Source of the DNA: a virus
Direction: 5' to 3' (one strand)
IMG/VR virus record: IMGVR_UViG_3300033182_000487
Span: 32,001-96,000 of that record
Length of the DNA: 64,000 nt
Every line of letters begins with the position of its first letter. Position 1 is the stretch's first letter. A program made the position numbers and the translations under genes. This document shows, in pieces, positions 4,180-64,000 of the stretch. Under the pieces are notes generated by a model. It was given only the letters and a program-made list of their open reading frames with translations, had not been told where the DNA came from and did no database searches.

Positions 4180-4229
4180 CGGTAGGCTCTCTATGCGCCG
4201 CTCAGGGTGAGGCTCGGTACTCTCTCTAT
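4180..4229 (+). promoter_or_regulatory. Two tandem late-class promoter motifs
   Basis: CGGTAG-gctct-CTAT (4180-4194) and CGGTAC-tctct-CTAT (4215-4229). Confidence 0.7.
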
Positions 4230-4261
4230 GGGCACCGTCCAGCAAGACCTTCGGAGACACC

Positions 4262-6898
4262 ATGATCCCCTCAGACATCCAGCCCCTGATCCGCCTGGCC
4301 GCGACCCTCCCCGTAGGATCACTCGACCGCCGCACCATCCTCGCCTCCTTGAAGAAGCAGGCCGCGTTCGCGGACGACCTCGTTGCACGGGTGGACGTGA
4401 TGTCGGGGTCCATGGGCGGCAAGGACGCGGACCGTGGCCCTCTGTTGAAGGCCGTCCAGGCCGGGCTCCCGGAGAGCGTGTTCAACCTGGAGGAGTTCAC
4501 GGCTGAGGCGTTCCCTCGCTACGGGGTGACCTCCCTCGACGAACTCAGGAAGGCCGAAGACCTCACCGACGAGGACCGCGCCGAACTCAAGTCTCTGGAA
4601 GACCGGATCAAGCCTTTCAGCGCCATGGTCGCGAAGGTGGAGAAGTGGAGCGGGACGAAACTGGGGCAAGACCTCGCCGAGGGTCTCAGCCTGGTCTCCG
4701 GCAAGACCGACCACAAGTTGCGCGAGGCCGTCTGGGCCGGGGTCGCGAAGGGGATGCACGGCGACGTCGAGAAGTTGGAGTCTGGACGGCGCGTCGTCAC
4801 TGACACTGGTCGGGGGTCACTGACCACTCCTGGAGCCCTGGGCACCGAGCCGGAAGACCTCGTGCAGGTGATGCTGGCGGGCGGCATCGAACTGCCGGGC
4901 ATGATCTTCGACAAGAACATGTCGGACAAGACCTACTACGAGGGCGTCCGTGTCCGAGGCACGTTCAAGCCCCGGAAGGAACTGTTCAAGCCGGGCACCA
5001 GCGTCTACACGCTGGCTGGCGCGAAGATCAAGCCGACGAAGATCTCGGAACTGAGGTCGGTCCGAGGCTACGCGAAGTCCGTGGCTTCGACCACGGCCAT
5101 CGACTGGAAGCGGTCGGTCCACATCGGCACCGAGTACATCCTGGCCGAGGGTGATGCCAGTGCTCCTGATCCTGAGCACGCCATGAACATGGGCGGCAAG
5201 GTGAGCCTGGAGTCCCTGCTGGGAGCGGACCTCATTGACGGGGTCACGGTCAGCAAGCAGATGACTCTGGCCCGGTACTACATCAAGAAGATCCGCCAGG
5301 TCATGAAGCGCGCCCTTCCCAAGGGTGTGCAGGCTGCGGTCTGGGAGGCTGTCGCCGAGATGATCACGAAGGGGATCAACCCCTGGAAGGGTCAGGGTCG
5401 CGGTGGCGAGTTCGCCGTTGACTACAACGCCATCGAGAAGTTCCTCGACACCCGTGACGGGCAGAAGATCCTCGACGAGAACGAGATCACCGCCGACTCG
5501 ATCAACAAGAACAACGTCCAGAAGAACTGGGTCCGGGTCCGCGAGAAGATGCTCAAGGCCCTCTCGCAGTTGAGCGACGATGATCTCCTGGCTTCCATCC
5601 ACCTGTCCCTCGCGGCAGGCGGGATGGTGGACGACGTGCCCGAGTACATCAAGAAGATCAAGCGCGACAAGGATCTCTACCAGACCTACATCAGCGACAT
5701 GCGGAAGTACGGCTCGACCCGCGTTGCGGAGCAGGTCGTCAAGCGTGCCGCCGAGCGCCGCGCCATGATCCGGCTCGCAGCGACCCTTCCCGTGGGATCA
5801 CCGGAGCGTCGGGCCATCCTCGCTGGCTGCGAGAAGATGAAGTCCCCGGCCATGCAGGAGTCCTGCGAGGCCATGAAGGCTGGCAAGAAGCCCGGCAAGG
5901 GCAAGGCGAAGTCCGACGACAAGAAGAAGGACGACGGCAAGATGCCCGCCGAGTTGCTGGAGAAGTTCAAGGCGAAGAAGGCCGCTTCCGGCCCTCACCC
6001 CAAGGGTCGCAACTGGAAGGACAAGGGTGGTCGCTGGGTGTGGGCAGGCTCCGATGGTGATCCTGCATTCACCGTGGTCGAGAAGTCCGCTCCGTTCGGC
6101 TCCTACTACAAACTCCAGATGCTTCTCCCCGATGGGGGCATGTACGCCGCTGCGAACCAGAAGACCGAGAAGGAAGACCTGTTCAAGCGTGCTGCGGAAC
6201 TCTACAAGGCGTGGGGCAGCGCAGCCGGGTTCAACCTGAGCCGCCAGCCCGAGCGGTGGAGCAAGATGGCTGGCAAGGGCGACGTGCCCGACGCTCTCAA
6301 GAAGCACCAGTTCACCTCCGAGGACAACCCCAACCCAAAGGGCAACGACAAGGACGGCGACGGCAAGTCCAACGAGCCGAAGCCCGCTGGCCTCAAGGGC
6401 AAGAAGGCTGGTCGCGCTTCCGGTCAGATCATGGCCGAGATCACCAGGTTCGCCGATGCGTTCCTCCCCTCCCTCACCAGGAGGGTTCCTGTGGAGTCTC
6501 TGGGTGATCCCAAGACCTTGAAGCAGATCCAGAACTCGTTGGTGTACGCGATGTCCGATCTGGCGAAGGACGTGGTGATGGAGGAGCGTTTCGGACCCAA
6601 GGGTGGTGGGCAGTACAAGCGGCAGTTCGGCAGCGTCCTGTCCAACCCTCCCCCCTTCTCGTCGCAGACCGCTCACTGGTTTGAGGAGAACCGTGACGCG
6701 CCCAAGTACACCGCTGCATGGAAGGCGATGTCCGGTTGGGCTGCACGGGAAGGCATCTCTCTCGATGCTGGTGCCCGCATCCGTGCCGCAAACAGCAAGA
6801 AGGCCGCGCTGATTCGCCTTGCCGCCGCTCTCCCGGTCGGCTCCTCCGAGCGCAAGACCATCCTCCGCATGGCCGCCTTGAAGGAGATCCGTCCGTGA
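4262..6898 (+). CDS. Modular putative head-cargo polyprotein with three LIRLAxxLPVGS tags and a sigma-like domain
   Basis: Three tag copies; EPEDLVQ..AKSVASTTAIDWKR and NNVQKNWVRVREKMLKAL resemble ECF sigma regions 2 and 4. Confidence 0.7.
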   Translation: MIPSDIQPLIRLAATLPVGSLDRRTILASLKKQAAFADDLVARVDVMSGSMGGKDADRGPLLKAVQAGLPESVFNLEEFTAEAFPRYGVTSLDELRKAEDLTDEDRAELKSLEDRIKPFSAMVAKVEKWSGTKLGQDLAEGLSLVSGKTDHKLREAVWAGVAKGMHGDVEKLESGRRVVTDTGRGSLTTPGALGTEPEDLVQVMLAGGIELPGMIFDKNMSDKTYYEGVRVRGTFKPRKELFKPGTSVYTLAGAKIKPTKISELRSVRGYAKSVASTTAIDWKRSVHIGTEYILAEGDASAPDPEHAMNMGGKVSLESLLGADLIDGVTVSKQMTLARYYIKKIRQVMKRALPKGVQAAVWEAVAEMITKGINPWKGQGRGGEFAVDYNAIEKFLDTRDGQKILDENEITADSINKNNVQKNWVRVREKMLKALSQLSDDDLLASIHLSLAAGGMVDDVPEYIKKIKRDKDLYQTYISDMRKYGSTRVAEQVVKRAAERRAMIRLAATLPVGSPERRAILAGCEKMKSPAMQESCEAMKAGKKPGKGKAKSDDKKKDDGKMPAELLEKFKAKKAASGPHPKGRNWKDKGGRWVWAGSDGDPAFTVVEKSAPFGSYYKLQMLLPDGGMYAAANQKTEKEDLFKRAAELYKAWGSAAGFNLSRQPERWSKMAGKGDVPDALKKHQFTSEDNPNPKGNDKDGDGKSNEPKPAGLKGKKAGRASGQIMAEITRFADAFLPSLTRRVPVESLGDPKTLKQIQNSLVYAMSDLAKDVVMEERFGPKGGGQYKRQFGSVLSNPPPFSSQTAHWFEENRDAPKYTAAWKAMSGWAAREGISLDAGARIRAANSKKAALIRLAAALPVGSSERKTILRMAALKEIRP

Positions 6899-24222: not shown

Positions 24223-24273
24223 CTCGGTAGGTTTCTATGCGTAGGGTGTCGTATGACTCACGCGAGGATCCCC

Positions 24274-24369
24274 ATGACCCCCTCAGACCACAAAGCCCTG
24301 ATCCGGCTGGCGAGCACCCTTCCTGATGGGGACCGCCTTCGCCGTGCGATCCTGCGGAGCGTGAAGTAG
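24274..24369 (+). CDS. 31-aa peptide consisting only of the LIRLASTLP tag
   Basis: Hand translation MTPSDHKALIRLASTLPDGDRLRRAILRSVK; GAGG RBS; late-like motif CGGTAG-gttt-CTAT at 24225-24238. Confidence 0.75.
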   Translation: MTPSDHKALIRLASTLPDGDRLRRAILRSVK

Positions 24370-27119: not shown

Positions 27120-27603
27120 GCGAGCCGCCGAGGAGGGGATCCTTGAAGAAATCCTCCGTGATCACGCGGACCTGGACTACGACCACCCGATCTTCATCCC
27201 GTACCTGACCTACACCTACCAGGGGAAGCGGACCCTGCTCTCCGTCATGGAGGGCTACGTCTTCGTGGCGTCTGGCTTCGACGACGCCAGCCGCGACCAC
27301 TTTGCCCGATCCCCCTACATCAAGAAGATCCTCACCCGAGGGGCCAACCACTACTCCCCCTACGAGACCGTATCTCAGGCTTCGGTGGACTCTTTGCGCC
27401 ACCGACTACGCGAACTGATGGCGGTCGAGATCCGGGAGGGGATGGAGGTCCGTATTGTGGATGGGCCACTCAGTGGTATAAGTGGGAGCGTGGTGGGGGT
27501 GTTTGATACACATGCGACCCTCCTCGTAGAGATGCGGTCCATACGCGCCATCCAATATCTTCCGTGCTTCCTCCTACGACCCGTGAGTGACGAGCATGAG
27601 TAA
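27064..27603 (+). CDS. nusG: NusG/RfaH-like transcription factor
   Basis: WVVL, FIP, MEGYVFV (NGN domain) and KOW motif IREGMEVRIVDGPLSGISG. Confidence 0.8.
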   Translation: MDARDQTTWVVLELSHHGERAAEEGILEEILRDHADLDYDHPIFIPYLTYTYQGKRTLLSVMEGYVFVASGFDDASRDHFARSPYIKKILTRGANHYSPYETVSQASVDSLRHRLRELMAVEIREGMEVRIVDGPLSGISGSVVGVFDTHATLLVEMRSIRAIQYLPCFLLRPVSDEHE

Positions 27604-28237
27604 CTATTGGTGCAGCCACATTGTCTTAGACCCCTCCGACATCGAGCGCATGTTCTCCAACGAGGACGGCCTCTCCACCTTCCCCGGCTCCACGGAGGAA
27701 CTCTCGGACGAGAGCAAGGCCGAGTTGGAGCAGGTCAAGGGGGTGCTGGACCAGATCCCTCCCCGCGAAGCGGACTTCGTCGAACTCTACTTCTTCCAGC
27801 GCATCCGGCAGACCACCATCGCCTCGCTGTTCAACATCAGCCAGCCAACCGTCTGCTACCGCCTGCAACGAGCCGCAGCCCGGATCCGCTACCTCCTCGA
27901 CATGCCCAAGTACGACCCGTGGTTGATGGAGCAAGACCTCCGGGGCGTCCTCACTGACCCGAAGGACATCCAGATCATGATGGGCATGGTCGCCACGACC
28001 TGCCAGAGCGAGGTCGCGAAGGAACTCGGGGTCACGCAGGGCTTCGTCCGCCATCGGTACTTCCGCACCATCGGACGGCTCCAGAAGATGCGGGGGATGG
28101 AGCAGTACGTCCGGGTCTTTGAGCACGTCGCGGCGAACCTCAACATCCTCAAGGAGACCCACAGGTCGAAGTGGTCGGAGCCTGTGATCTACGTCGTCTC
28201 CGAGCACCCGACAGCGGTCGAAGCACAGCCCGCGTAG
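27596..28237 (+). CDS. Protein with tandem sigma-region-4-like HTH domains
   Basis: IPPREADFVELYFF..QTTIA.LFNISQPTV..RL.RA and Q.EVAKELGVTQ..VR.R. Confidence 0.75.
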   Translation: MSNYWCSHIVLDPSDIERMFSNEDGLSTFPGSTEELSDESKAELEQVKGVLDQIPPREADFVELYFFQRIRQTTIASLFNISQPTVCYRLQRAAARIRYLLDMPKYDPWLMEQDLRGVLTDPKDIQIMMGMVATTCQSEVAKELGVTQGFVRHRYFRTIGRLQKMRGMEQYVRVFEHVAANLNILKETHRSKWSEPVIYVVSEHPTAVEAQPA

Positions 28238-39678: not shown

Positions 39679-42600
39679 ATGGCATTCCCAGGCTCCGTCT
39701 ACGCCCCTCCGGGCGTCTACACCCAGACTCTCTTTGAAGACCCGCTCCAGAGCATCGCGGGCAACGTCCGCATCCCCCTGCTCATTGGCACCGGGTCCGA
39801 GATCCTGACCCAGAGTGGTCTGGAGTTGGTGCGCGGCTCCTCCTCCTCGGTTGACCAGCGTGTCGTCCAGGAAGACGAGACGGCTCGCGCCGTGGTGTCC
39901 ATCACGGAAGCCGGACTCGTGACCCTCGGAGCCTTCGACAGCGTCCTGGACCGCATCCAGACGAAGCACTACCCCATCGTGAACGGCAACGGCACGGGCA
40001 CCACGGCGACTGACTCCGCGTCGGTCAACGTCACCATCAACGGTGAGCCTGTTGTGGTCCTCGCCATCGACGGTGCGAAGGGCATCCTCACCCTGTCGAG
40101 CAGCCCTGATCCGGGCGACGAGGTGAAGGTCACCTACTACTTCAACCGCACCGACACCCTGATCACCGACACCCTCAGTGACCAGATTTCTCCCGACGCT
40201 CCCGAGATCATCGGCGCGGTCGGCGAGTCCTACGTCGTCATCGAGGGCGTCAACGACACGCTCTCCTTCACGGTGGACAGCGCCACCGTCGTGGACGTGA
40301 CCATCACTCCTTCCGCCCCTGCTGGTTGGTCGGCTGCACAGGTCGCCTCGTTCATCAACGCCGCCGCTGCTGGGACGAGCCTCTCGGCTTCGACCACGGT
40401 GAACAACCTCGGCCAGACGGTGCTCTACCTGACCGCTGACCGCGACATCGTCGTCGGCAACGGCCTGGCAAACACCACCCTCGGTCTGGACCTCGGTGCC
40501 GACACCGCCCGGAACAAGACCTTCTACACCTTCCAGCGTCCCATCGTGGACGGGTCGAACGGTGGTGTCACCACCACGGACCCGGCGGACGTGACAGTCA
40601 AGGTGGACGGCACCCAGGTGATCCCGACCTCTGTGGACGGGGCTTCCGGTGCTGTGGTCCTCCCCTTCGCGCCAGAAATCGGCGCTGTGGTCACCTGCCA
40701 GTACTACTTCAACTCGTGGCAGGACACGTTCGACTACCTCCAGCACCGAGGCGTCGTCGAGATCACCCAGTGCGGGATCACGCCTGACCGCAACGACTAC
40801 ATCGACGGTGCGGACTTCGTTTTGAAGGACGACAAGATCCTCTGGGGCACCGCAGTCACCACCGAGGCTGGCGTCCACACCACGGGCAGCGCCTACTTCG
40901 ACGACGTGCAGATCTCCACGACCCTGGTGGACACCCGCCAGTACCTGGCCGCCTGCTCCCCTGTGGTCAACACGAGCGTCAACCCGCCCGTCGAGAACCG
41001 CAAGGACTTCACCCTCCCGCTCCAGCCCACCACCGGAAACGGTCGCTCCACCCCGCTGGGTGCCGAGACCTACTCCAAGGTGGCCAACGGACGGGTTGAC
41101 CTCCCGACTGACCGCCCTGATCTCGTGTGGGCCTACTGGGGCTTCTCCCTGGAGGACGCTCTGGACCGTGGCCGCGTCGAGGTCACGAAGGTCGAGTCCT
41201 CGACCAGCACCATCACCCTGCGTGAGCCGGTGCCCGTCGGCGCGACCGTCTACGCCACCTTCTACTACAACACCCTCGTGGACCAGGCGTACAGCGTTGC
41301 CTGTGACACCGCTGGTGCAAGCGGTGTGGGCACCTACTCGGTGACCAACGAGGCCGGAACCTCGCTCCTGACCCCGCAGTTCGGCTCCAAGAGCGCCGCG
41401 CTCGCCACGGTCACCGTCGAGTTCCCGAGCGGCTCCGAGCGCACGCCGGACTGCCGCTTTGAGAGCCCGTTCGACACGTCGTCGTTCGTCGGCCCTGTCG
41501 AGGAGGACGTGACCGTCACGTTCGCTTCCCAGGACGCGACCCTGGCGAAGTACACGCTCCCCGGCTCCGGTCCCTACTACATGGTCCAGAACGCCAGCGA
41601 CCAGTTGTCCATCAACATGGACAACTCGGGTGCTCCCGGCGACATCGACCTGTCCTCGGTCAGCCGTGCATGGGTTGTCGGTGACGAGGTCGTCTACAGC
41701 CCCGACGGCTCCAACGAGTACGAGGACGGCGTGGCGACGACCAACAACGAGGTCGATCTGATGATCGACGGCGTGTTGATCCAGTCACGGGCCGATACGG
41801 GTGACCGCACGGCCATCGTCGCGACTGACTTCCAGGACATCGGACGTTACGCACAGTCCATCAACCGCGCAGCCTTCGGTGACTACGCCGATGCTGCGGG
41901 TGGTGTGCTCGTGCTCGCAGCGTCAACGGATGCGAACAACTTCCAACTGGACGCCGAGGCTTCCAACATTGACGACTACTACGTCGGCTGGACCGTCCGC
42001 ATCACCAGTGGTGCTGAAGCAGGTAGCGAGGCCACCGTCACGTCCTACAACGGCACCACCAACGCGGTGGTCGTCGGTGCGGGGCTCGGTGGTGATCCTG
42101 GTTTGGCCAACTACGTCCTCTACAACCCGGACGCGCTTCCGGTGTTGAAGGCTTCCACGCGCTTCCTGTCCTCGCTCACCATCGCAGCGGGCGAGTTCGA
42201 CATCATCAACTGGCGCATCGTCGGTTCGTCCGCGACCATCACGGGCACGACCCTCGGGATCGAGACTGCTGCTTCCGGTGGTGTGTTCACGTCGGCTACC
42301 GCTCTGGCAACCGACGTGCAGACCGTGTTGCAGAACTCCATCAACGCTGTTGCTGCTGTCCCTGCCATCGCTCCGCAGGTGCTTGTCTCGGCAGACTCCG
42401 ACGGACGGCTCAACTTCAAGTTGGTCCCCGATGGGGCTGACCTTGAGGGTGCCTACCTGGAGTTCATCACCGACGGAACCCCCGCGCAGGACTTCTGTGT
42501 CCTCGCCGGTCTGGACACCGACACGGCTGGTGGCAGCCAGACTCACCTCTACAACAGGGCCATCGCCAGCACCTTTGAGTTCGCGGGTGCTACCACCACC

Positions 42601-44847
42601 CTGCGCCTCAACGACCGTCTGTTCCTCCAGAACCGCATCCGTCCCGGTGCTGGAACGGCCAACATGGACACCCAGTTCGTGCTCGACCAGTGCCAGTTGA
42701 AGGTGATGGGAGGCACGGGCCTCGCCCAGGCCGCCCTGACCGCCAACGAGCAGGGCTACGCCGCCATCCGGGCCACCATCATGCCTCCTACCACCTACGG
42801 TGAGGTCGGCTTTTCCGGTGGACAGGACGCTGCCGGACAGCCTGTCGTGACCTTCTTCGCGGCTGGTGGCACCACCGACCAGAACAACGTCTTCCAGATG
42901 ACCTACGAAGGCACTCCGATCACCGTCGAGTTCACCGACTCGGCAGGTGCTCCGATTGCTGCCGGTGGTTCGGCAGACGTTCCGCTGGGGCCACTGACCG
43001 ATGGGAACAGCATCCTGGGTCAGATCAGCGCAGCCATGACCGCCGCTGGGGTCACGGGGATTTCTCAGGAGGGTGCGGGCATTCGCTTCCGTGGTTCCTC
43101 CTCGGCGTCCTCGGCCACCATCGTCATCGGTAGCGGCAACGCCAACACCGACCTGGGCTTCGACGACGGCGACATCGTGTACCGCACGGACGTCTCCGTG
43201 GAGTCCCTGGTCAGTGTCCTCAACTCCAGTACCCTCTGGAACGACGGCTCTGGACGCGGCTTCGCCAAGACCGTTCGGGACGACACCAACGCTTCCTTCC
43301 TGTACCTCCAGAGCACGGGTACGTCGGGCGCTGGTACGACCTCCTCCATCGCCATCGAGGATGCAGCAGCCGACAACGCTCTGCGCCCCGGCAGCGGTCT
43401 GGGGGCCACGGACGGCGACGGCAACGTGGGTGAGGCGGCCATCGACGGCTTCTTCGTCACCTCGTCTGATCCCGTGTCCGGTTCGGGTACGGCCAACACC
43501 TCCATCCTCAACTCGGGAACGGGTCAGGACGGCGATGTCGGCGCGACCTACCGTGACCTGGTGACCGGCCTGACCTTCACCATCCTGCCCCGTGCAGGTG
43601 GCGCGGCCTACCCGGTCGGTGCGACCCTGACCTTCACGGTCCGGGCGGGCGTCACGACGGATGCCAACCTCCCGGTCAACACCATCCCCGGTGTAGAACT
43701 CTACGTCTCCAACACCTCCGGGATCACCGTTGGTGACACCGCTGTGGTGCAGACCTACGAGAAGGGCGGCAACCAGCCTGCCGTGGGCGACCTCTACTAC
43801 GTCTCCTACGACTACCGGAAGCAGGACTACAGCACCCAACTGTTCACGAAGCAGTCGGCTGTGGAGGCCACCTACGGTGCAGCGGGCCCGGTCAACCCGG
43901 TTTCGCTGGCTGGCTACCTGGCCATCCTCAACGGGGCGGTCCTGATCGCCATCAAGCAGGTGGAGAAGGACACCGACTCCGACTCCGACGGCACGAACGA
44001 CAGCGCCAGCACGGACGCTTTCCTCGCCGCCATCGACGAGGTGGAGGGGACGCTCCCTGGTGGGGCCTACCCGGACTACCTCGTTCCGCTCAAGGGTGAC
44101 TCCCTGGAGTTGTTCCAGTACCTCGCACGGTCCTGCGACATCCAGTCGAGCATCCGCTACCGCGCCGAGCGCACCGCGATCTGTGGCCTGTCCGCAGGTA
44201 CGCAGCCGCGTGAAGCCGGTGAGACGGCGGAAGCCATCGCCCGGACCCGGATGCGCCTCGTGTACCCGGACATCTGCACCCTGAGCCTGTCGCGGGCCGA
44301 CGGGACCACGGACTCCTACCTGCTCGACGGCACCTACCTCGCCGCCGCGTGGTCCGGGAACCGTGCCTCGCCGACCATCGACGTTGCGACCCCGTGGACC
44401 CGTGGCCGGATCTTCGGCTTCGACGAACTGGCTCGCAAGATGGATGCAGTCCAGCAGAACCAGGTCGCTACTCGCGGTGTCACGGTGTTCAACCAGCGCC
44501 AGAGCATCGTCGAGTGCCGCCAGGGTCTGTCCACCGACATGACCAACGTGCTGACCAAGACCCCGACCGTGATCACCATCGCGGACGAGGTCCAGCGCCA
44601 GGCTCGTGCCACCCTGGACAAGTTCATCGGGATCAAGTTCCTGTCGAACGTGACCACGACCATCGAGGGCCAGTTGTCCAAGACCCTCAAGCAGTTGGTC
44701 GCGGCTCAGATCATCAACACCTTCACGGGCGTCACCGCCAACGTGTCACCTGATGATCCGACCGCTGCCGAGGTGGAGGCGTACTACCAGCCGGTGTTCC
44801 CACTTTTGTACATTATCGTGACCTTCAACCTGCGCTCAAGTCTTTGA
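39679..44847 (+). CDS. Contractile tail sheath protein with large insertions
   Basis: N-terminal PPGVY; C-terminal sheath domain ending YQPVFPLLYIIVTFNL. Confidence 0.85.
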   Translation: MAFPGSVYAPPGVYTQTLFEDPLQSIAGNVRIPLLIGTGSEILTQSGLELVRGSSSSVDQRVVQEDETARAVVSITEAGLVTLGAFDSVLDRIQTKHYPIVNGNGTGTTATDSASVNVTINGEPVVVLAIDGAKGILTLSSSPDPGDEVKVTYYFNRTDTLITDTLSDQISPDAPEIIGAVGESYVVIEGVNDTLSFTVDSATVVDVTITPSAPAGWSAAQVASFINAAAAGTSLSASTTVNNLGQTVLYLTADRDIVVGNGLANTTLGLDLGADTARNKTFYTFQRPIVDGSNGGVTTTDPADVTVKVDGTQVIPTSVDGASGAVVLPFAPEIGAVVTCQYYFNSWQDTFDYLQHRGVVEITQCGITPDRNDYIDGADFVLKDDKILWGTAVTTEAGVHTTGSAYFDDVQISTTLVDTRQYLAACSPVVNTSVNPPVENRKDFTLPLQPTTGNGRSTPLGAETYSKVANGRVDLPTDRPDLVWAYWGFSLEDALDRGRVEVTKVESSTSTITLREPVPVGATVYATFYYNTLVDQAYSVACDTAGASGVGTYSVTNEAGTSLLTPQFGSKSAALATVTVEFPSGSERTPDCRFESPFDTSSFVGPVEEDVTVTFASQDATLAKYTLPGSGPYYMVQNASDQLSINMDNSGAPGDIDLSSVSRAWVVGDEVVYSPDGSNEYEDGVATTNNEVDLMIDGVLIQSRADTGDRTAIVATDFQDIGRYAQSINRAAFGDYADAAGGVLVLAASTDANNFQLDAEASNIDDYYVGWTVRITSGAEAGSEATVTSYNGTTNAVVVGAGLGGDPGLANYVLYNPDALPVLKASTRFLSSLTIAAGEFDIINWRIVGSSATITGTTLGIETAASGGVFTSATALATDVQTVLQNSINAVAAVPAIAPQVLVSADSDGRLNFKLVPDGADLEGAYLEFITDGTPAQDFCVLAGLDTDTAGGSQTHLYNRAIASTFEFAGATTTLRLNDRLFLQNRIRPGAGTANMDTQFVLDQCQLKVMGGTGLAQAALTANEQGYAAIRATIMPPTTYGEVGFSGGQDAAGQPVVTFFAAGGTTDQNNVFQMTYEGTPITVEFTDSAGAPIAAGGSADVPLGPLTDGNSILGQISAAMTAAGVTGISQEGAGIRFRGSSSASSATIVIGSGNANTDLGFDDGDIVYRTDVSVESLVSVLNSSTLWNDGSGRGFAKTVRDDTNASFLYLQSTGTSGAGTTSSIAIEDAAADNALRPGSGLGATDGDGNVGEAAIDGFFVTSSDPVSGSGTANTSILNSGTGQDGDVGATYRDLVTGLTFTILPRAGGAAYPVGATLTFTVRAGVTTDANLPVNTIPGVELYVSNTSGITVGDTAVVQTYEKGGNQPAVGDLYYVSYDYRKQDYSTQLFTKQSAVEATYGAAGPVNPVSLAGYLAILNGAVLIAIKQVEKDTDSDSDGTNDSASTDAFLAAIDEVEGTLPGGAYPDYLVPLKGDSLELFQYLARSCDIQSSIRYRAERTAICGLSAGTQPREAGETAEAIARTRMRLVYPDICTLSLSRADGTTDSYLLDGTYLAAAWSGNRASPTIDVATPWTRGRIFGFDELARKMDAVQQNQVATRGVTVFNQRQSIVECRQGLSTDMTNVLTKTPTVITIADEVQRQARATLDKFIGIKFLSNVTTTIEGQLSKTLKQLVAAQIINTFTGVTANVSPDDPTAAEVEAYYQPVFPLLYIIVTFNLRSSL

Positions 44848-44925: not shown

Positions 44926-46437
44926 ATGGACTGCTCAATCTGTGGTTTCACCGTCTCCAACGCACGGGGACTCGTCGCTCACTTCCGCCACCAGTCGGAC
45001 ACGCATCCCGACTACAAGGAGTGGTCTGAGGAGCAGAAGTGGAAGGACAAGACCGAGGGGGTGGACTTCGTTCGGTGTCGGGAGTGTGGGTTCCGCTCCA
45101 AGAGCCTCGCCCGACACTTGAAGTCGGCACATGGGTTCACCGCCGACGAGTACCGGGAGAAGCACGGGGCAGACGCTCCGACCCGATGCAACAGCACGGA
45201 GGCGAAGCGTCGTGCTGGGATCAAGGCGGCTCACGCCCGTACCGACCGTAAGGGACAGACCAAGACGGTTGCCTGTACGGGCTGCGGGGTGGACACCGAG
45301 ATCGCTCTGTTCGCTGCTGCACCCACAGCGGTTTGCGGTGCCTGTCGGGATTCAGTGTGGGAGGGCAAGTCAGAGCCAGAGGACTTCGTGACTTGTCTCG
45401 ACTGCGGACACCGTGCGGAGAACCTGACCAGCCATGTCACCAACGCCCACCCAGACTACCGAGATCGCCACCCGGATGCGGTGATGGTGGCGTTGCGCTC
45501 CGCTGTTCGGGACAAGGAAGCCTTGCGGGGTCGTACCTTGTCTTCCGAGGTGCGGGCGAAGATGTCTGCCAACGCGGGTCGGTGGAACAAGGGCTTGACG
45601 AAGGAGACGCATCCCAGCCTCCGTTCGGCTTCGGAGAAGATGCGGACCAAGGTGCCGTGGTCGAAGGGTCTGACTGCGATGACGGACGAACGGCTCCAGC
45701 AGACGGTGGCGAAGTTGAGGCTCTATGTGGGGGAGAGCCGTCCGTGGTCGAACGGGTTGAAGGCCGACCTCACTCTGGAGGACTTTCAGCCGTTCCTTGA
45801 TGATGAAGGCTGCGTGGATCGTCGTGCCATCGTGGAGGCCACGGGTCTGTCATGGCGGACGATCTTCACCTACATGCAGTCGCTTGATCTGGAGACTTCG
45901 GACAAGTACATCCGAGAGCGGTCAGAAGACCAGATCATCAGGCTCGACCGAGAGGTGTTGGAACAGTCGTTGATGGAGAACGGGAAGGCTTGCATCGCCC
46001 GGATCATGCGTGACACCGGGCACTCGTTCTCGGTGGTCAAGAGGGAGTGCGCCCGACACGGGTTGGAGATGTTCACCCGAATGGGTGAGCAGATCCTTGT
46101 GCTGGACGCGATCTCGGAGGCGTTGGGGGGCAAGCCGTACAAGATGGAGTGGAAGGATTGGAGGTTCGTCAACCCCGCTACAGGTTGGCGTTTCAAGTTC
46201 GACGGCTACTTCCCCGATGTGGGGTTGGTGGTCGAGTATCACGGGCATCAGCACTACATCTTCCCGAATGCTTGGCACTACAAGCCCGAGCACAAGGAAG
46301 CATGGCACGCGATGTTGGAGCGCGACCGGATCAAGAAGGAGATGGTCGAGGCGTCAAGTGATCTCACCTACTTGGAAGTCCGCTTCGATGACTCGTTGAC
46401 CTCGGTAGATTTCTACCGGGGCTTGCTTCGTCGGTAG
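44926..46437 (+). mobile_element. Free-standing homing endonuclease-like gene (zinc fingers, NUMOD repeats, Vsr/EDxHD-like nuclease)
   Basis: C2H2/MucR-like fingers; RGRTLSSEVRAKMS; WNKGLTKET repeats; FDGYF..LVVEYHGHQHY..RDRIK; atypical codon usage. Confidence 0.75.
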
Positions 46438-46880: not shown

Positions 46881-47327
46881 ATGCCCCGCATCATCACCGC
46901 CGCTGACCGATCTGCTCTCATTCGTCTGGCGAGCACCCTCCCTGCGGGCTCTGAGGAGCGGAAGGTGATCCTCGCCGGGTTGAAGCAGGCCCGCGCCCCC
47001 CGTGAGAACCAGACGGCTGGTCGCCTATCGGCTGATATGCGGAAACGAGAGGACGAGATCGAGTTCCTGTCCAGCGCGGGCGGCAAGGTGTTGAAGACCT
47101 ACAGGAGCGTCTGGATGGAAGCCGCGAGGCTGGCGGAAACCTATGAGGGGTCGCCAAGTTACTCCCCTGATAGTGATTGGGGTGTTGAACAGGATCAGCG
47201 GGAGATCACGAACCAACTTGGTATGCAGGCGGCATCACTGAGGCAGACGGCACAAAGGCTTCGGCAGTTGGTTGATGAACTGGAATCCTTCGCCGCTCAG
47301 GCGAAGAAGGTCGCTGATTCGTTCTAA
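46881..47327 (+). CDS. LIRLASTLP-tagged helical protein
   Basis: AADRSALIRLASTLPAGSEERKVILAGLKQA followed by a domain with atypical codon usage. Confidence 0.75.
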   Translation: MPRIITAADRSALIRLASTLPAGSEERKVILAGLKQARAPRENQTAGRLSADMRKREDEIEFLSSAGGKVLKTYRSVWMEAARLAETYEGSPSYSPDSDWGVEQDQREITNQLGMQAASLRQTAQRLRQLVDELESFAAQAKKVADSF

Positions 47328-47368
47328 TCGGTAGCCTCTCTATGGACTCCCTGTGGGCAGGAGAGTCC

Positions 47369-48253
47369 ATGTCCCGCAAGACCGCAAAGGCTGACCTGAC
47401 TCCTGTTCGGCAGCGCACCCAGTATTCATGTATGGCAACCTCAATGAGCATGTGCCTCCGTGCTCTGGGCCACGAGTGCGACGAGGACGAGGTCAACAAG
47501 GTCATGGGCGCACGTCCCATGAAGGGCGCAGCGTGGGAGCAGGCGTTGGCCTGTGCCCAGCACTACGGATGCCGTGCGACCCTCACGTCACCCTCGACTG
47601 TGAAGCAGTTGAAGGAGTGGACCGACGCAGGCAAGCCCGTGATGATCGCGTGGAACCCCGAGGGCCGCGAGTGGTCCCACGCCAGCGTGGTGTTCGACGT
47701 GGACGACGACTTGAACGTCTACGTCGCTGACCCCAACATCCCTGATCCCGACGAGACTGTCCGGGTTGTGCCCAAGGGCGAGTTCTACAAAAAGTGGTAC
47801 GAGAAGTGGCCCAACTACCTCGTCCGCCGACCTGCGATGATGATCGACCGTGAGATCACCGCTGATGGGAGACAGGTCATGGCGTCTGCCGAGCGCGTGG
47901 CCTCGGCCTTCGCCCGCAGGGCTGCACAGGCGCGGATCGACAACAAGTTGAAGCGCGAGATCAACGCACGGATGCGTCGTCTCGGCCTCGACGGCAACGG
48001 ACGCTTCCGCAAGCCCGACCGTGGCTTCGCAGCCGCCGTGGACGCCATGCAGGAGCACGGAGTCACGCTGGACGGTGTGGTCAGCGCCCGTGAGTTCTCT
48101 GCACGACCCAGTGGCACCGTCCGCGCCGACATCGCCTTCATCGACGGCTCCCAGCCTTATGCGCCGGGCATCACCATCTCCAACTCCATCCTCTATCTCC
48201 AGTACACGGAAGTCAGCGACGACCGGTTTGAGGTAGTGGCCTACCTGTCGTAG
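47369..48253 (+). CDS. C39-like cysteine peptidase fused to a second module
   Basis: VRQ...SC..TS..M, H..VV, YVADP; linker VMAS-AERVAS-AFARRAA. Confidence 0.75.
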   Translation: MSRKTAKADLTPVRQRTQYSCMATSMSMCLRALGHECDEDEVNKVMGARPMKGAAWEQALACAQHYGCRATLTSPSTVKQLKEWTDAGKPVMIAWNPEGREWSHASVVFDVDDDLNVYVADPNIPDPDETVRVVPKGEFYKKWYEKWPNYLVRRPAMMIDREITADGRQVMASAERVASAFARRAAQARIDNKLKREINARMRRLGLDGNGRFRKPDRGFAAAVDAMQEHGVTLDGVVSAREFSARPSGTVRADIAFIDGSQPYAPGITISNSILYLQYTEVSDDRFEVVAYLS

Positions 48254-55501: not shown

Positions 55502-57061
55502 ATGGCCCAGCCTCCCTTCCTCGTAGACGAACTCCAGATCGAACCTGGTAGCGGTGACACCCTCACCCTGTCGCGGGATTCGACCGACGGGGCGATGAAG
55601 TTCGTTGACGCTGTGCTCACCTCTGGTGCGCTGCTCCCGAATCTCGTCGGCCTGCGGAACGTCACCGGGGTCTACATCGTGGGCCGCGCTGGCGACGGTG
55701 CTCCCTACACGAGCATCCAGGACGCCCTCGACGCCGTGCCGGACTCGTCCAGCGCGGCGGCTCCCTCACTGATCATGATCCTGCCGGGGCTCTACACGGA
55801 GAACGTGACCATCCAGAAGGACGGCGCGTATCTCGTAGGACTCGGTGGGGTCACACTCACCAACAGCGGCGCGAGCGACACCGTCGAGATCAGCGCCGCC
55901 GTCACCACGACCCCGCAGGACGTCCTGCTCCGAGGACTCAAGATCCAGAACACCTCGGCGGCCCAGTCCTGCGTGAGGATCATCGGAGCCGACTCGTTCG
56001 CTTCGGGAACCGTCACAGTGAACGCTGCGCCACTGGCTACCGGGGACACCATCACCATCAACGGCATCGCGCTCACCGGAACTGCTGGGGTCAGGACGTC
56101 CGGGAGCAACGATTTCTCGGTCAGCAGCGGCACCACGGACGGCATCGCCGCTGAGATCGTCGCAGCCATCAACGACACGGCCAACTCGTTTGCCACGCTC
56201 GTCGAGGCATCCGCTCTGCTCAACGTGGTCACCTTCACGGCTGTCACCGCAGGGTCCGGCGGCAACGCCATCACCCTCGCTGTGAGCACCACGCCTCCGG
56301 GCAACATGACCCCATCAGGAGCCAACCTCGCTGGAGGCGGCTCTGCGGGCTCCCTCGTGGGCAACGGGGTCATCACCATCGAGGACTGTGAACTGCTGGC
56401 AGCGGGCGCTGCGGGCTACCAGGTCCGAGCCGACACCTCGGGCCACATCCGGGTCCGTGGCGGCACCTGGCGCGGCAGCGACAACGCCAGCCTCTCGACC
56501 GCTTCCAACTGCGCCCTCTTTTCGGTGGCCGACGTCGAGTGGGCCAACGACTTTGAGGTCGCCTACGACACCACGGCAGACCGCCCCGCCGACACCACCT
56601 GCGAGTACGAACTCCTGAGCGTGGGTCGGATCAACGGCGTCCTGTCCAACCTCTCGGGTGCAGGATCACTCGCCCTCAAGAACTGCCCTGAGACGGCAAG
56701 CGTGAGCCAGGACGGGGACCAGACCCTCAATGCCTACCTCTCCACGTTGGGCGCATTGACCCTCAACGGCACGACTGTGGCCACCCTCTACGGCAGCACA
56801 CGGACCACCGCGACTCAGGCTGGTGGCAGTCCCACGCTGGCCGAGCCTCACGTTCGGGGTGAGAGGGCCTTTGCGGCGTCCGCGTCCGAGACCATCACCT
56901 TCGACATCCCCGCCCCGGACACCAACTACACGGTGCTGGTGGAGAACCCGTCACCGACAAGCACTCTGGCGATTCGGAACAAGACAGCCACGGAGTTCCG
57001 CATCGAGGCCACCCCGGCCCTCACGGACACCGTTGGCTACTCTATCGTCCGCAGCCTGTAG
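55502..57061 (+). CDS. Fibre/spike-like structural protein with a beta-helix-type entry motif
   Basis: YTSIQDALDA..I.PGLY.ENV; C-terminal module shared with 28614. Confidence 0.65.
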   Translation: MAQPPFLVDELQIEPGSGDTLTLSRDSTDGAMKFVDAVLTSGALLPNLVGLRNVTGVYIVGRAGDGAPYTSIQDALDAVPDSSSAAAPSLIMILPGLYTENVTIQKDGAYLVGLGGVTLTNSGASDTVEISAAVTTTPQDVLLRGLKIQNTSAAQSCVRIIGADSFASGTVTVNAAPLATGDTITINGIALTGTAGVRTSGSNDFSVSSGTTDGIAAEIVAAINDTANSFATLVEASALLNVVTFTAVTAGSGGNAITLAVSTTPPGNMTPSGANLAGGGSAGSLVGNGVITIEDCELLAAGAAGYQVRADTSGHIRVRGGTWRGSDNASLSTASNCALFSVADVEWANDFEVAYDTTADRPADTTCEYELLSVGRINGVLSNLSGAGSLALKNCPETASVSQDGDQTLNAYLSTLGALTLNGTTVATLYGSTRTTATQAGGSPTLAEPHVRGERAFAASASETITFDIPAPDTNYTVLVENPSPTSTLAIRNKTATEFRIEATPALTDTVGYSIVRSL

Positions 57062-61942: not shown

Positions 61943-64000
61943 ATGTCGTTTGGGCCCTCAGCACGAAGGGTAGCCCGCCGTAAGCAGGCGGACGCGGACC
62001 ACGCCACCTCCATCGCTCTGATGAAGTGGCTGTCGAAGCAGACAAAGAGTCTGGGGATCGCGCAGCACGTCTACATCGTGGGCGGTGCGGTGCGGAACTT
62101 CGTGCTGGACCAGCCCATCAAAGACATCGACATGGTGGTGGACTCGCTCGCCCTGCGGGGCAACCGCGACTCCGAGTGGGTGGCACAGCGCCTCGCCCAG
62201 CGGATTCCCGGCTCCGCGATGCCGAAGATCCACACCTCCAACCTGGGGGTGTCCACCATCAAGATCACAGGCGACTGGCTGCTCGACGGCAACCAGATGA
62301 AAGGCAAGGACATCGACATCGCGAACGCCCGTGAGGAGGAGTACGCGGTGGACCCCGCGACGGGCGAGTACACCGGACACAAGCCCATCAAGGTGAGCCC
62401 GACCACGATGGAGATCGACGTCTCCCGCCGTGAGTTCACGTTCAACACGCTCATGTGGTCGCTGATGTCGGTCGCCGACGGCCCCGACAAGGCTGAAATC
62501 ATCGACATCACTGGCTGCGGTCTGCGCGACTTGAAGAACCGCGAGATGCGCTGCCCCAGCGATCCCGACGAGACGTTCGCGCAAGACCCCACCCGGATCA
62601 TCCGCACCATCAAGTTCGCCTTCAAGTACGGCATGAAGTTGCCACCCGACGTGAAGGCCGCAGCGAAGCGGCAGGCGAAAGGGCTCAAGCGCATCCCGTC
62701 GAAGGCGTGGACCGTGCTCCAGACCATCGTGTTCGACAACCCTCAGTACAAGAAGGCCCTCGACGTCATGGCTGACCTCGGGGTCACGGACGTGCTGGCC
62801 GAGATGATGCAGTCGGACAAGCAGTTCCGCTCCACCCTGGGCAAGTACTCCCAGGGCCGGGGGTTGGCCTACATGTTCGACCTGATGGACGTGGGCATTC
62901 CCGTTGACGAGCCCTTGAAGTTCCTCGACGCGGACCAGCGGAAGCGTCTCCGAGAGGTCACGACGGGCATGGACCGCGATGACGCGATGGCCTACCTGGA
63001 GGCGTTGAAGAACCCCGGCAAGGTCTACGACCGCAAGTTCATCCCCACCCTTGCCAACAGCCTCGGCTACGGCGGCAAGCAGATGCGGAACTTCATGCAG
63101 ACGGTCACCCCGCTTGGCCGGGAAGCCCTGCTGCGTGACCCCAGCCTCAAGGACAACCCGTCGGCACTGATGCGCGAGGTCGAGCAGGCTGCGAAGCGAG
63201 CCCTCCCTACTCGGGTGGCGATGCGGTGGGCCTCCGAGAACGAGCCTACTGACCCTGGCCTGTGGGCGAAGGTGCAGGCCCTCGCCAAGGGTGAGCAGAA
63301 GTCCATGACCCACGACGGCAAGACCATCGAGGCTCCCAACGACGGTGCGGGCTTCAAGGTGTTCCCGAGCGCCTACGCCAACGGCTGGGCGAGCAAGACC
63401 TACGGTGATCTCGGCGGCGGCTGGAAGAAAAAGGCTTCCGCATCTCGCATCGCTGATGCGTGGGGTCCGATGCTCCGTGAGGCACGCAGCCAGAACCCCT
63501 ATGCCACTGATTTCGGGGGTAGTTGGACCATCAAGTTCGACGTTGGACGGATGGAGCCTCTGCTCTGGACACCTTCTGGGTTCAAGGATTCCCGCAAACT
63601 GGACTACACGCGCTCGTCACGCAGTCCGAAGGACTTCCGTACACAGGCGGAAGCCAACCGTGAGATCCAGACAGAGGTGTTGGACTTCATCCGAGACTAC
63701 AGGTCAGATCAAGCAGACCTGATTCGTGGGTGGGGTTCTCGTACCGCTCGCGGCAAGGCGAAGAAGGACGTGGGCCACGGCGGGCTGGACGAGTGGTTTA
63801 GCGGCCACGGCGGGGCCAAGGGGAAGGGCGAAGGTGCTACCTGGGGTGACTGGGTGGCCATCTCCCCCGTGACGAAGACCCTCGACTCTGGGAAGAAGGT
63901 CGAGAAGGGCGACATCGTGGGCGACTGCGGCATCTCCGATGACCCCGACTGGAAGGAGATCACGAAGGGCGGCAAGGATCCGCTCAAGTGTATGCCTCGC
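61943..64000 (+). CDS. Class II tRNA nucleotidyltransferase/poly(A) polymerase-like polyprotein (runs off the window)
   Basis: Hand-translated: YIVGGAVRN..KDID, RREFTFN, FAQDPTRIIR, followed by FPSAYANGW and GLDEWF modules. No stop seen in the stretches translated. Confidence 0.85.
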   Translation, partial: MSFGPSARRVARRKQADADHATSIALMKWLSKQTKSLGIAQHVYIVGGAVRNFVLDQPIKDIDMVVDSLALRGNRDSEWVAQRLAQRIPGSAMPKIHTSNLGVSTIKITGDWLLDGNQMKGKDIDIANAREEEYAVDPATGEYTGHKPIKVSPTTMEIDVSRREFTFNTLMWSLMSVADGPDKAEIIDITGCGLRDLKNREMRCPSDPDETFAQDPTRIIRTIKFAFKYGMKLPPDVKAAAKRQAKGLKRIPSKAWTVLQTIVFDNPQYKKALDVMADLGVTDVLAEMMQSDKQFRSTLGKYSQGRGLAYMFDLMDVGIPVDEPLKFLDADQRKRLREVTTGMDRDDAMAYLEALKNPGKVYDRKFIPTLANSLGYGGKQMRNFMQTVTPLGREALLRDPSLKDNPSALMREVEQAAKRALPTRVAMRWASENEPTDPGLWAKVQALAKGEQKSMTHDGKTIEAPNDGAGFKVFPSAYANGWASKTYGDLGGGWKKKASASRIADAWGPMLREARSQNPYATDFGGSWTIKFDVGRMEPLLWTPSGFKDSRKLDYTRSSRSPKDFRTQAEANREIQTEVLDFIRDYRSDQADLIRGWGSRTARGKAKKDVGHGGLDEWFSGHGGAKGKGEGATWGDWVAISPVTKTLDSGKKVEKGDIVGDCGISDDPDWKEITKGGKDPLKCMPR

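Follow-up and report, generated by a model that had tools for sequence, protein, structure and literature searches.

A tag-core-tag protein family of phage-G-like phages and the question of a sigma-like core

The stretch of DNA analysed here (the window, 64,000 nucleotides, nt) comprises bases 32001-96000 of the 113-kb IMG/VR virus record IMGVR_UViG_3300033182_000487, which CheckV rates as 25% complete. The open reading frame (ORF) at 4262-6898(+) is a genuine gene, and its product, P0001, is the founding member of a protein family in which a core of ~450 amino acids (aa) lies between copies of a short basic peptide, the tag, which recurs in about 20-30 proteins per genome that are otherwise unrelated. 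We tentatively favour the explanation that the core has DNA or the transcription machinery as its target whilst the tags dock the protein onto a common receptor. Within the core, aa 332-435 are likely to form a sigma-4-type helix-turn-helix (HTH) domain. It is possible that the core is a full sigma-like factor; delivery of P0001 in the virion is more doubtful, and these three propositions taken jointly are improbable.

The GC content is ~64%, and from 4.2 kb onward nearly all genes are on the + strand. The portal protein shares 66% identity with the one of the 485-kb uncultured phage LR745208.1, 36% with its counterpart in Tunturiibacter phage Tunturi_5 and 26% with that of Bacillus phage G; for related fragments 159-297 kb long, the completeness ratings are 36-67%. 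The source is therefore a huge phage of ~440 kb, belonging to the phage-G lineage.

A family of tagged proteins

A word-indexed search found 18 homologues of P0001, none of them with a Pfam family. When the core was run exhaustively through 1.84 billion representatives with phmmer, seven matches came back, all of them family members, and four more distant homologues were gained. Neither blastn nor tblastn matched P0001 to any of 50,697 phage records, and the ESM Atlas gave no usable match with the core as query. The family is small, uncharacterised and restricted to one clade of ~440-kb phage-G-like phages.

The tag-core-tag layout (Table 1) is found in every family member, including P0024 (415 aa, 24% identity), which has only these parts. 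In P0001 the core (456 aa) lies between tags 1 and 2, and a first-pass annotation of the window had correctly seen that tag copies flank the domain: there are three, with independent E-values (i-E) between 2e-14 and 2e-16 in a search of the six-frame genome. Beyond tag 2, P0001 and most other members carry a Cys- and Lys-rich linker, homologue-specific inserts, a conserved motif (HQFTSEDNPNPKGNDKDGDGK) and a third tag; the tagged C-terminal extension of P0001 is 380 aa long. On other contigs the HQFTSEDNPNPKGNDKDGDGK motif, flanked by two tags, is a stand-alone protein of 201 aa. Because this unit exists separately, P0001 looks like two tagged units fused, and such a fusion explains without cleavage the 'polyprotein' appearance that the first-pass annotation had remarked on. 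A DxDxDG-like stretch (of the DKDGDG type) in the HQFTSEDNPNPKGNDKDGDGK module suggests calcium binding, judging from its sequence. The module also recurs in other tagged proteins (L016:313-432, L022:2354-2518 and L028:3088-3201).

The tag itself is a basic peptide of 29 residues with the consensus core LIRLAxTLPxGSxxRxxIL. A six-frame search of the record with a hidden Markov model (HMM) found nine copies on seven genes (i-E 4e-10 to 2e-16), the next-best frame having an E-value of 0.7 and all others 0.7 or worse; P0001 is the sole three-tag protein of the record. There are 23 copies in one relative (G001, 297 kb) and four to seven in each of three other related fragments, and a pattern scan of IMG/VR gave 24 tag loci, the longest contig among them measuring 297 kb. 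Loci L008-L031 and L037-L045 carry the tag. A search with a working positive control found neither tag nor core in LR745208.1 or Tunturi_5, and no cultured relative bears the tag.

The tag usually sits at residues 7-35, preceded by M-S/P-R-x-L-T-A-x-D-R at the start of the protein, and some proteins have a C-terminal copy as well. The small tagged genes often stand in tandem arrays, with five consecutive in L011, and ORFs that are essentially the tag alone occur both in the window (Table 1) and elsewhere (L019, 34 aa; L043, 45 aa; L045, 57 aa). The domains attached to the tag are mutually unrelated and mostly unknown, the exceptions being YdcK/bactofilin-like beta-solenoids, Phage_L5_gp82 and a domain of a fusellovirus family named 'capsid protein VP2' in Pfam, borne by one tagged protein. 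No solved structure is similar in sequence to the tag, for which a helix-loop-helix fold is predicted by eye.

Structure and sequence of the core

We modelled aa 35-490 with AlphaFold2 from an alignment of 21 sequences (predicted local distance difference test, pLDDT, 71.8; predicted template modelling score, pTM, 0.51). In the model, a helical domain that contains a beta insert is followed by a conserved acidic segment of ~40 residues and then by a sigma-4/LuxR-type HTH-like domain, an order that would be that of a minimal sigma factor, resembling those of the extracytoplasmic function (ECF) group, or of the AR9 protein gp226. Sigma region 4 supplies the best PDB matches of the HTH domain, most of the top 50 structure rows are of one fold class, and sigma A chains take ranks 1 and 2 in a second structure look too. 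The HTH fold is moderately supported by the model, and the structure evidence is suggestive of a sigma-like core.

The first-pass annotation had proposed that P0001 resembles regions 2 and 4 of ECF sigma factors, on the strength of peptides that do lie where it put them (aa 196-205, 4847-4876; aa 269-285, 5066-5116; aa 414-434, 5501-5563). By sequence, that resemblance proves no better than chance. Pfam holds no sigma family that matches whole P0001 at E<=1 or its sub-regions (aa 148-292 included) at E<=10, and none was found in NCBIfam or PHROGs at permissive thresholds; the only matches of P0001 in the three collections, to DUF6964 and DNA_Packaging_2, are below the cut-off. The region 2 models PF04542 and TIGR02937 leave P0001 unmatched, a six-frame search of the record included, whilst control genomes do match them. 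It is also unmatched by the region 4 models PF04545 and PF08281, and the same six-frame search with Sigma70_r4_2 picks up another protein of the window, encoded at 27587-28237. With hhalign, the P0001 family aligns with the family of that phage sigma-4 protein at a probability of 0.1% and with 14 ECF-sized bacterial sigma genes, taken from two metagenome-assembled genomes, at 0.5%, all runs giving 0.1-1.2%. A PDB profile search with P0001 returned only HSP82 noise (E 0.035).

These null results weigh against a sigma-like core, as do several structural observations. Foldseek found nothing in PDB or BFVD at E<=0.001, and the sigma-2 candidate scores only within the noise band. A four-stranded sheet of ~55 residues parts the two motif helices of this candidate, and we know of no sigma factor with such a ~55-aa beta-sheet insert; the putative HTH turn has ~9 residues, against the canonical 3-4. 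It is nevertheless rather unlikely that the sigma likeness is due to chance, that is, that the core is a structural or internal protein without a role in transcription and that the region-4 matches reflect a common small helical arrangement. Against such a coincidence stand the one fold class that fills most of the top 50 rows, the agreement of the second look, and an independent, suboptimal hhalign alignment that places the ECF region 4.2 HTH on aa 394-434, in the same register as the first-pass annotation (E 0.15, not significant). The family's two most conserved motifs, moreover, sit at both sigma-2 motif positions (2.2 and 2.4), even at 24% identity. hhalign yields a single alignment for the middle domain, in which EDLVQ falls at the beginning of ECF region 2.2 (8 columns, E 0.043, not significant). 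The sigma reading weakly survives the check that the first-pass annotation had set for it: structure prediction and fold search did not show a fold unrelated to sigma-2 and sigma-4.

The acidic linker between the two domains is conserved like the folded parts (majority fraction 0.83 versus 0.69-0.89) and is modelled at low pLDDT. A sigma finger or linker that folds only on the polymerase and a simple failure of modelling would look alike here. Two other identities for P0001 were considered and set aside. The many Rpb1 rows from Foldseek that might point to an RNA polymerase subunit fragment have template modelling (TM) scores of ~0.1 and an rmsd (root-mean-square deviation) above 20 A, and no beta/beta-prime family is present; a terminase small subunit is indicated only by a sub-threshold Pfam match, and the genome position is wrong for it.

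Among known proteins, the core can be likened to ECF (group 4) factors of the sigma-70 family, with which it would share a helical domain bearing EDLxQ and an A-x-N-x-A-x-D-x-x-R-like motif (in the family consensus), a flexible conserved linker and a four-helix HTH domain. Unlike ECF sigmas, P0001 has no Pfam or NCBIfam match, a 55-aa beta insert in the sigma-2 candidate, a beta-hairpin and long turn in the HTH domain, a 110-aa N-terminal helical extension, flanking tags and the tagged C-terminal extension. The other likeness is to AR9 gp226 and phiKZ gp68 of jumbo phages: gp226 has 464 aa, close to the length of the P0001 core, and in these proteins a unique N-terminal part is followed by a sigma-2-like domain, a finger-like linker and a sigma-4.1-like helix, like P0001 without sequence similarity to sigma factors. 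They are, however, sigma-like specificity subunits of phage multisubunit non-virion RNA polymerases, of which the beta and beta-prime subunits were not found in the five incomplete records here; gp226 lacks an HTH, which P0001 apparently has, and neither gp226 nor gp68 carries tags. Should the core be sigma-like, it would represent another lineage of sigma-related proteins invisible to sequence methods, after gp226 and gp68.

Promoter-like motif and other candidate specificity factors

Two copies of a promoter-like motif, both reading GGTAnnCTCTCTATG, lie upstream of the P0001 gene at 4181 and 4216, as the first-pass annotation had noted. The motif is kept upstream of P0001 orthologues on four other contigs despite protein identities of 25-50%, and a tandem pair is found in L008 and L010. 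A looser form of it (tcGGTAG-N5/6-CTATG) occurs at 15 sites of the 113-kb record as against 1.6 in shuffles (~9-fold), mostly 30-45 nt before start codons. Given this enrichment and the conservation before orthologues, the motif is therefore a genuine promoter-like element. It differs from the sigma-70 consensus. An endolysin-like gene (37831) and a terminase-adjacent gene (47342) have the motif in front of them as well, which would fit a late class.

The RNA polymerase beta/beta-prime families PF00562 and PF00623 are absent from the record and from four relatives (up to 297 kb), a weak negative since these records are 25-67% complete and such subunits are divergent. With no beta or beta-prime detected and a motif unlike that of sigma-70, phage specificity factors for the host polymerase are to be expected. 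A sigma-like P0001 core would be a candidate reader of the motif for a whole clade of uncultured ~440-kb phages.

The window offers two further candidates. P0002 is always divergent from the P0001 orthologue, with this synteny conserved in L008, L010, L009 and L021/L024, so that one half of the earlier claim, that P0001 is transcribed divergently from another sigma-like gene, holds. The other half has come down to a weak lead from language-model features, which are nearest to Sigma70_r2 clusters (0.88-0.90, Atlas). P0002 belongs to a family of 15 members, none with a Pfam match, and as a sigma factor it found no further support, with an hhalign probability of 0.5% and no match in Pfam or in a PDB profile search. 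The 216-aa protein at 27587-28237, which has neither a region 2 nor a tag and whose relatives number 934, many of them from contigs 100-350 kb long, appears from its family matches to be a better-founded candidate for a promoter-specificity factor than P0001. It shares the genome with P0001 and the fold class with aa 329-445 of that protein, but family models match it, and the hhalign probability between the two families is negligible, as given above.

Possible roles of the core and the tags

Capsid targeting by short peptides is known for T4, with its capsid-targeting sequence (CTS), for encapsulins and for the scaffolding protein of P22, which binds coat protein via basic helix-loop-helix peptides. 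The tag resembles the CTS of T4 internal proteins, the cargo-loading peptides of encapsulins and the P22 helix-loop-helix in being a short, mostly N-terminal, basic and probably helix-loop-helix peptide common to many unrelated proteins of one phage. It differs in being found also at C-terminal and internal positions, in two or three copies per protein or as tag-only ORFs. By analogy, capsid loading would be in keeping with a docking peptide of the basic helix-loop-helix type. On the explanation that we favour, the tags would most probably dock all tagged proteins on one common receptor, for which the procapsid interior is our leading guess and a cytoplasmic hub an equally open possibility. 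A different origin, as a leader of the kind found in ribosomally synthesised and post-translationally modified peptides (RiPPs), cleaved by the adjacent C39-like peptidase (Table 1), was rejected as the main reading: the cargo consists of folded proteins of 100-850 aa, there are C-terminal tags too, and the peptidase is also present in the tagless LR745208.1. The homologue of this peptidase in G001 likewise lies directly downstream of a tagged gene.

If the hub is taken in its strong form, P0001 would be unpackaged, the tags docking on a replication or transcription factory, on the sliding clamp or on each other, with P0001 as a multivalent scaffold and the single-tag proteins as clients. P0001 alone within the record has three tags, replication genes surround its gene, tagged genes are dispersed along the genome and not clustered in a head module, and the tag-only mini-ORFs (34-57 aa) would make sense as competitors and not as cargo. 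Set against this, no partner has been identified, the 'capsid protein VP2' domain is attached to one tagged protein, and basic helix-loop-helix peptides are the coat-binding device of P22 scaffolding; we regard this account as no more probable than a chance likeness of the core to sigma. We rank well below it the proposal closest to the first-pass annotation, that P0001 is a true sigma factor or mimic which the tags load into the head and a prohead protease sets free, and which enters the cell together with the DNA and redirects the host's RNA polymerase as infection begins. P0001 would then be a packaged, extremely divergent sigma-like factor, one of ~20-30 tag-addressed cargoes, that steers the host enzyme to GGTAG...CTATG promoters before phage gene expression. 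Injection of an entire RNA polymerase is known from N4, phiKZ and crAss-like phages, and that of an enzyme modifying the host polymerase from T4 (Alt); to our knowledge no phage has been shown to inject a sigma factor. The proposal draws on the same fold evidence as the explanation that we favour, on tags that are portable and mostly N-terminal, as in capsid-targeting sequences, on a K-x-A-[AG] motif that follows tag 1 in all homologues, and on the lack of a detected phage RNA polymerase. It requires three unproven steps together (sigma function, packaging and cleavage), with no sequence-level sigma signal and no prohead protease identified in the window, which already has a recognisable and untagged sigma region 4 protein (27587-28237). 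The setting of the gene also counts against the explanation that we favour: terminase and portal are ~45 kb away, the neighbours are replication genes (clamp-loader-like, RecD2 helicase), and no direct link from tag to capsid was found.

Whatever the core does, dozens of proteins per genome carry, in the tag, a compact addressing peptide of natural origin. Its receptor would explain protein sorting in these phages, and the tag might be of use in protein encapsulation.

Table 1. Features of the window (positions are those of the window unless G000 is named)
Feature	Position	Strand	Details
Promoter-like motif copy 1 (GGTAGGCTCTCTATG)	4181-4195	+	
Promoter-like motif copy 2 (GGTACTCTCTCTATG)	4216-4230	+	32 nt 5' of ATG
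Promoter-like motif, all sites	4181, 4216, 8251, 24226, 28247, 37779, 47330, 59100		more in G000
P0001, 878 aa	4262-6898	+	GC content at third codon positions (GC3) 0.85; GGAG 8 nt 5' of ATG
Tag copy 1 (aa 3-31)	4268-4354	+	HMM i-E 2.3e-14; in all homologues
N-terminal helical domain (aa 35-147)	4364-4702	+	pLDDT ~90; no informative fold match
Middle alpha/beta domain (aa 148-288), proposed sigma-2	4703-5125	+	helices bear EDLVQ and A..DWKRS, ~55-aa beta-sheet insert between
Acidic linker (aa 289-331)	5126-5254	+	43 residues; isoelectric point (pI) 4.1; pLDDT <50; majority fraction 0.83
Sigma-4/LuxR-type HTH-like domain (aa 332-435)	5255-5566	+	beta-hairpin insert aa 375-386
C-terminal core helices (aa 436-495)	5567-5746	+	
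Tag copy 2 (aa 496-524)	5747-5833	+	i-E 3.6e-16; best conserved part of family, majority fraction 0.94
Cys- and Lys-rich linker (aa 525-590)	5834-6031	+	from family alignment
Variable insert 1 (aa 591-665)	6032-6256	+	different or absent between homologues
Second portable motif (aa 666-712; HQFTSEDNPNPKGNDKDGDGK)	6257-6397	+	75% identity over 40 aa to L028
Variable insert 2 (aa 713-843)	6398-6790	+	from family alignment
Tag copy 3 (aa 844-872)	6791-6877	+	i-E 1.8e-16
Tag, all sites	4268, 5747, 6791, 24280, 35662, 46899; G000 4515, 19081, 19606		
P0002, 448 aa	2638-3984	-	acidic Ala/Pro/Glu-rich linker; always divergent from P0001 orthologue
Sigma region 4 protein, 216 aa	27587-28237	+	Sigma70_r4 4e-12 (two stretches); TIGR02937 5e-15; PHROG 'RNA polymerase sigma factor'
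38-aa ORF, essentially tag alone	24253-24369	+	promoter motif 10-30 nt upstream
Peptidase_C39-like protein (6e-11)	47342-48253	+	promoter motif; directly 3' of tagged gene 46881-47327; ~2 kb before terminase
1722-aa ORF	39679-44847		weak sub-threshold matches only: DUF2460, tail-sheath C-terminal domain
Ros/MucR-type zinc-finger regulator domain	44926-46437		match 5e-14
519-aa protein	55502-57061		sub-threshold pectinesterase match
tRNA nucleotidyltransferase / poly(A) polymerase head domain	61943-64000		match 3e-14

A zinc-ribbon gene downstream of P0001 is also syntenic in relatives.

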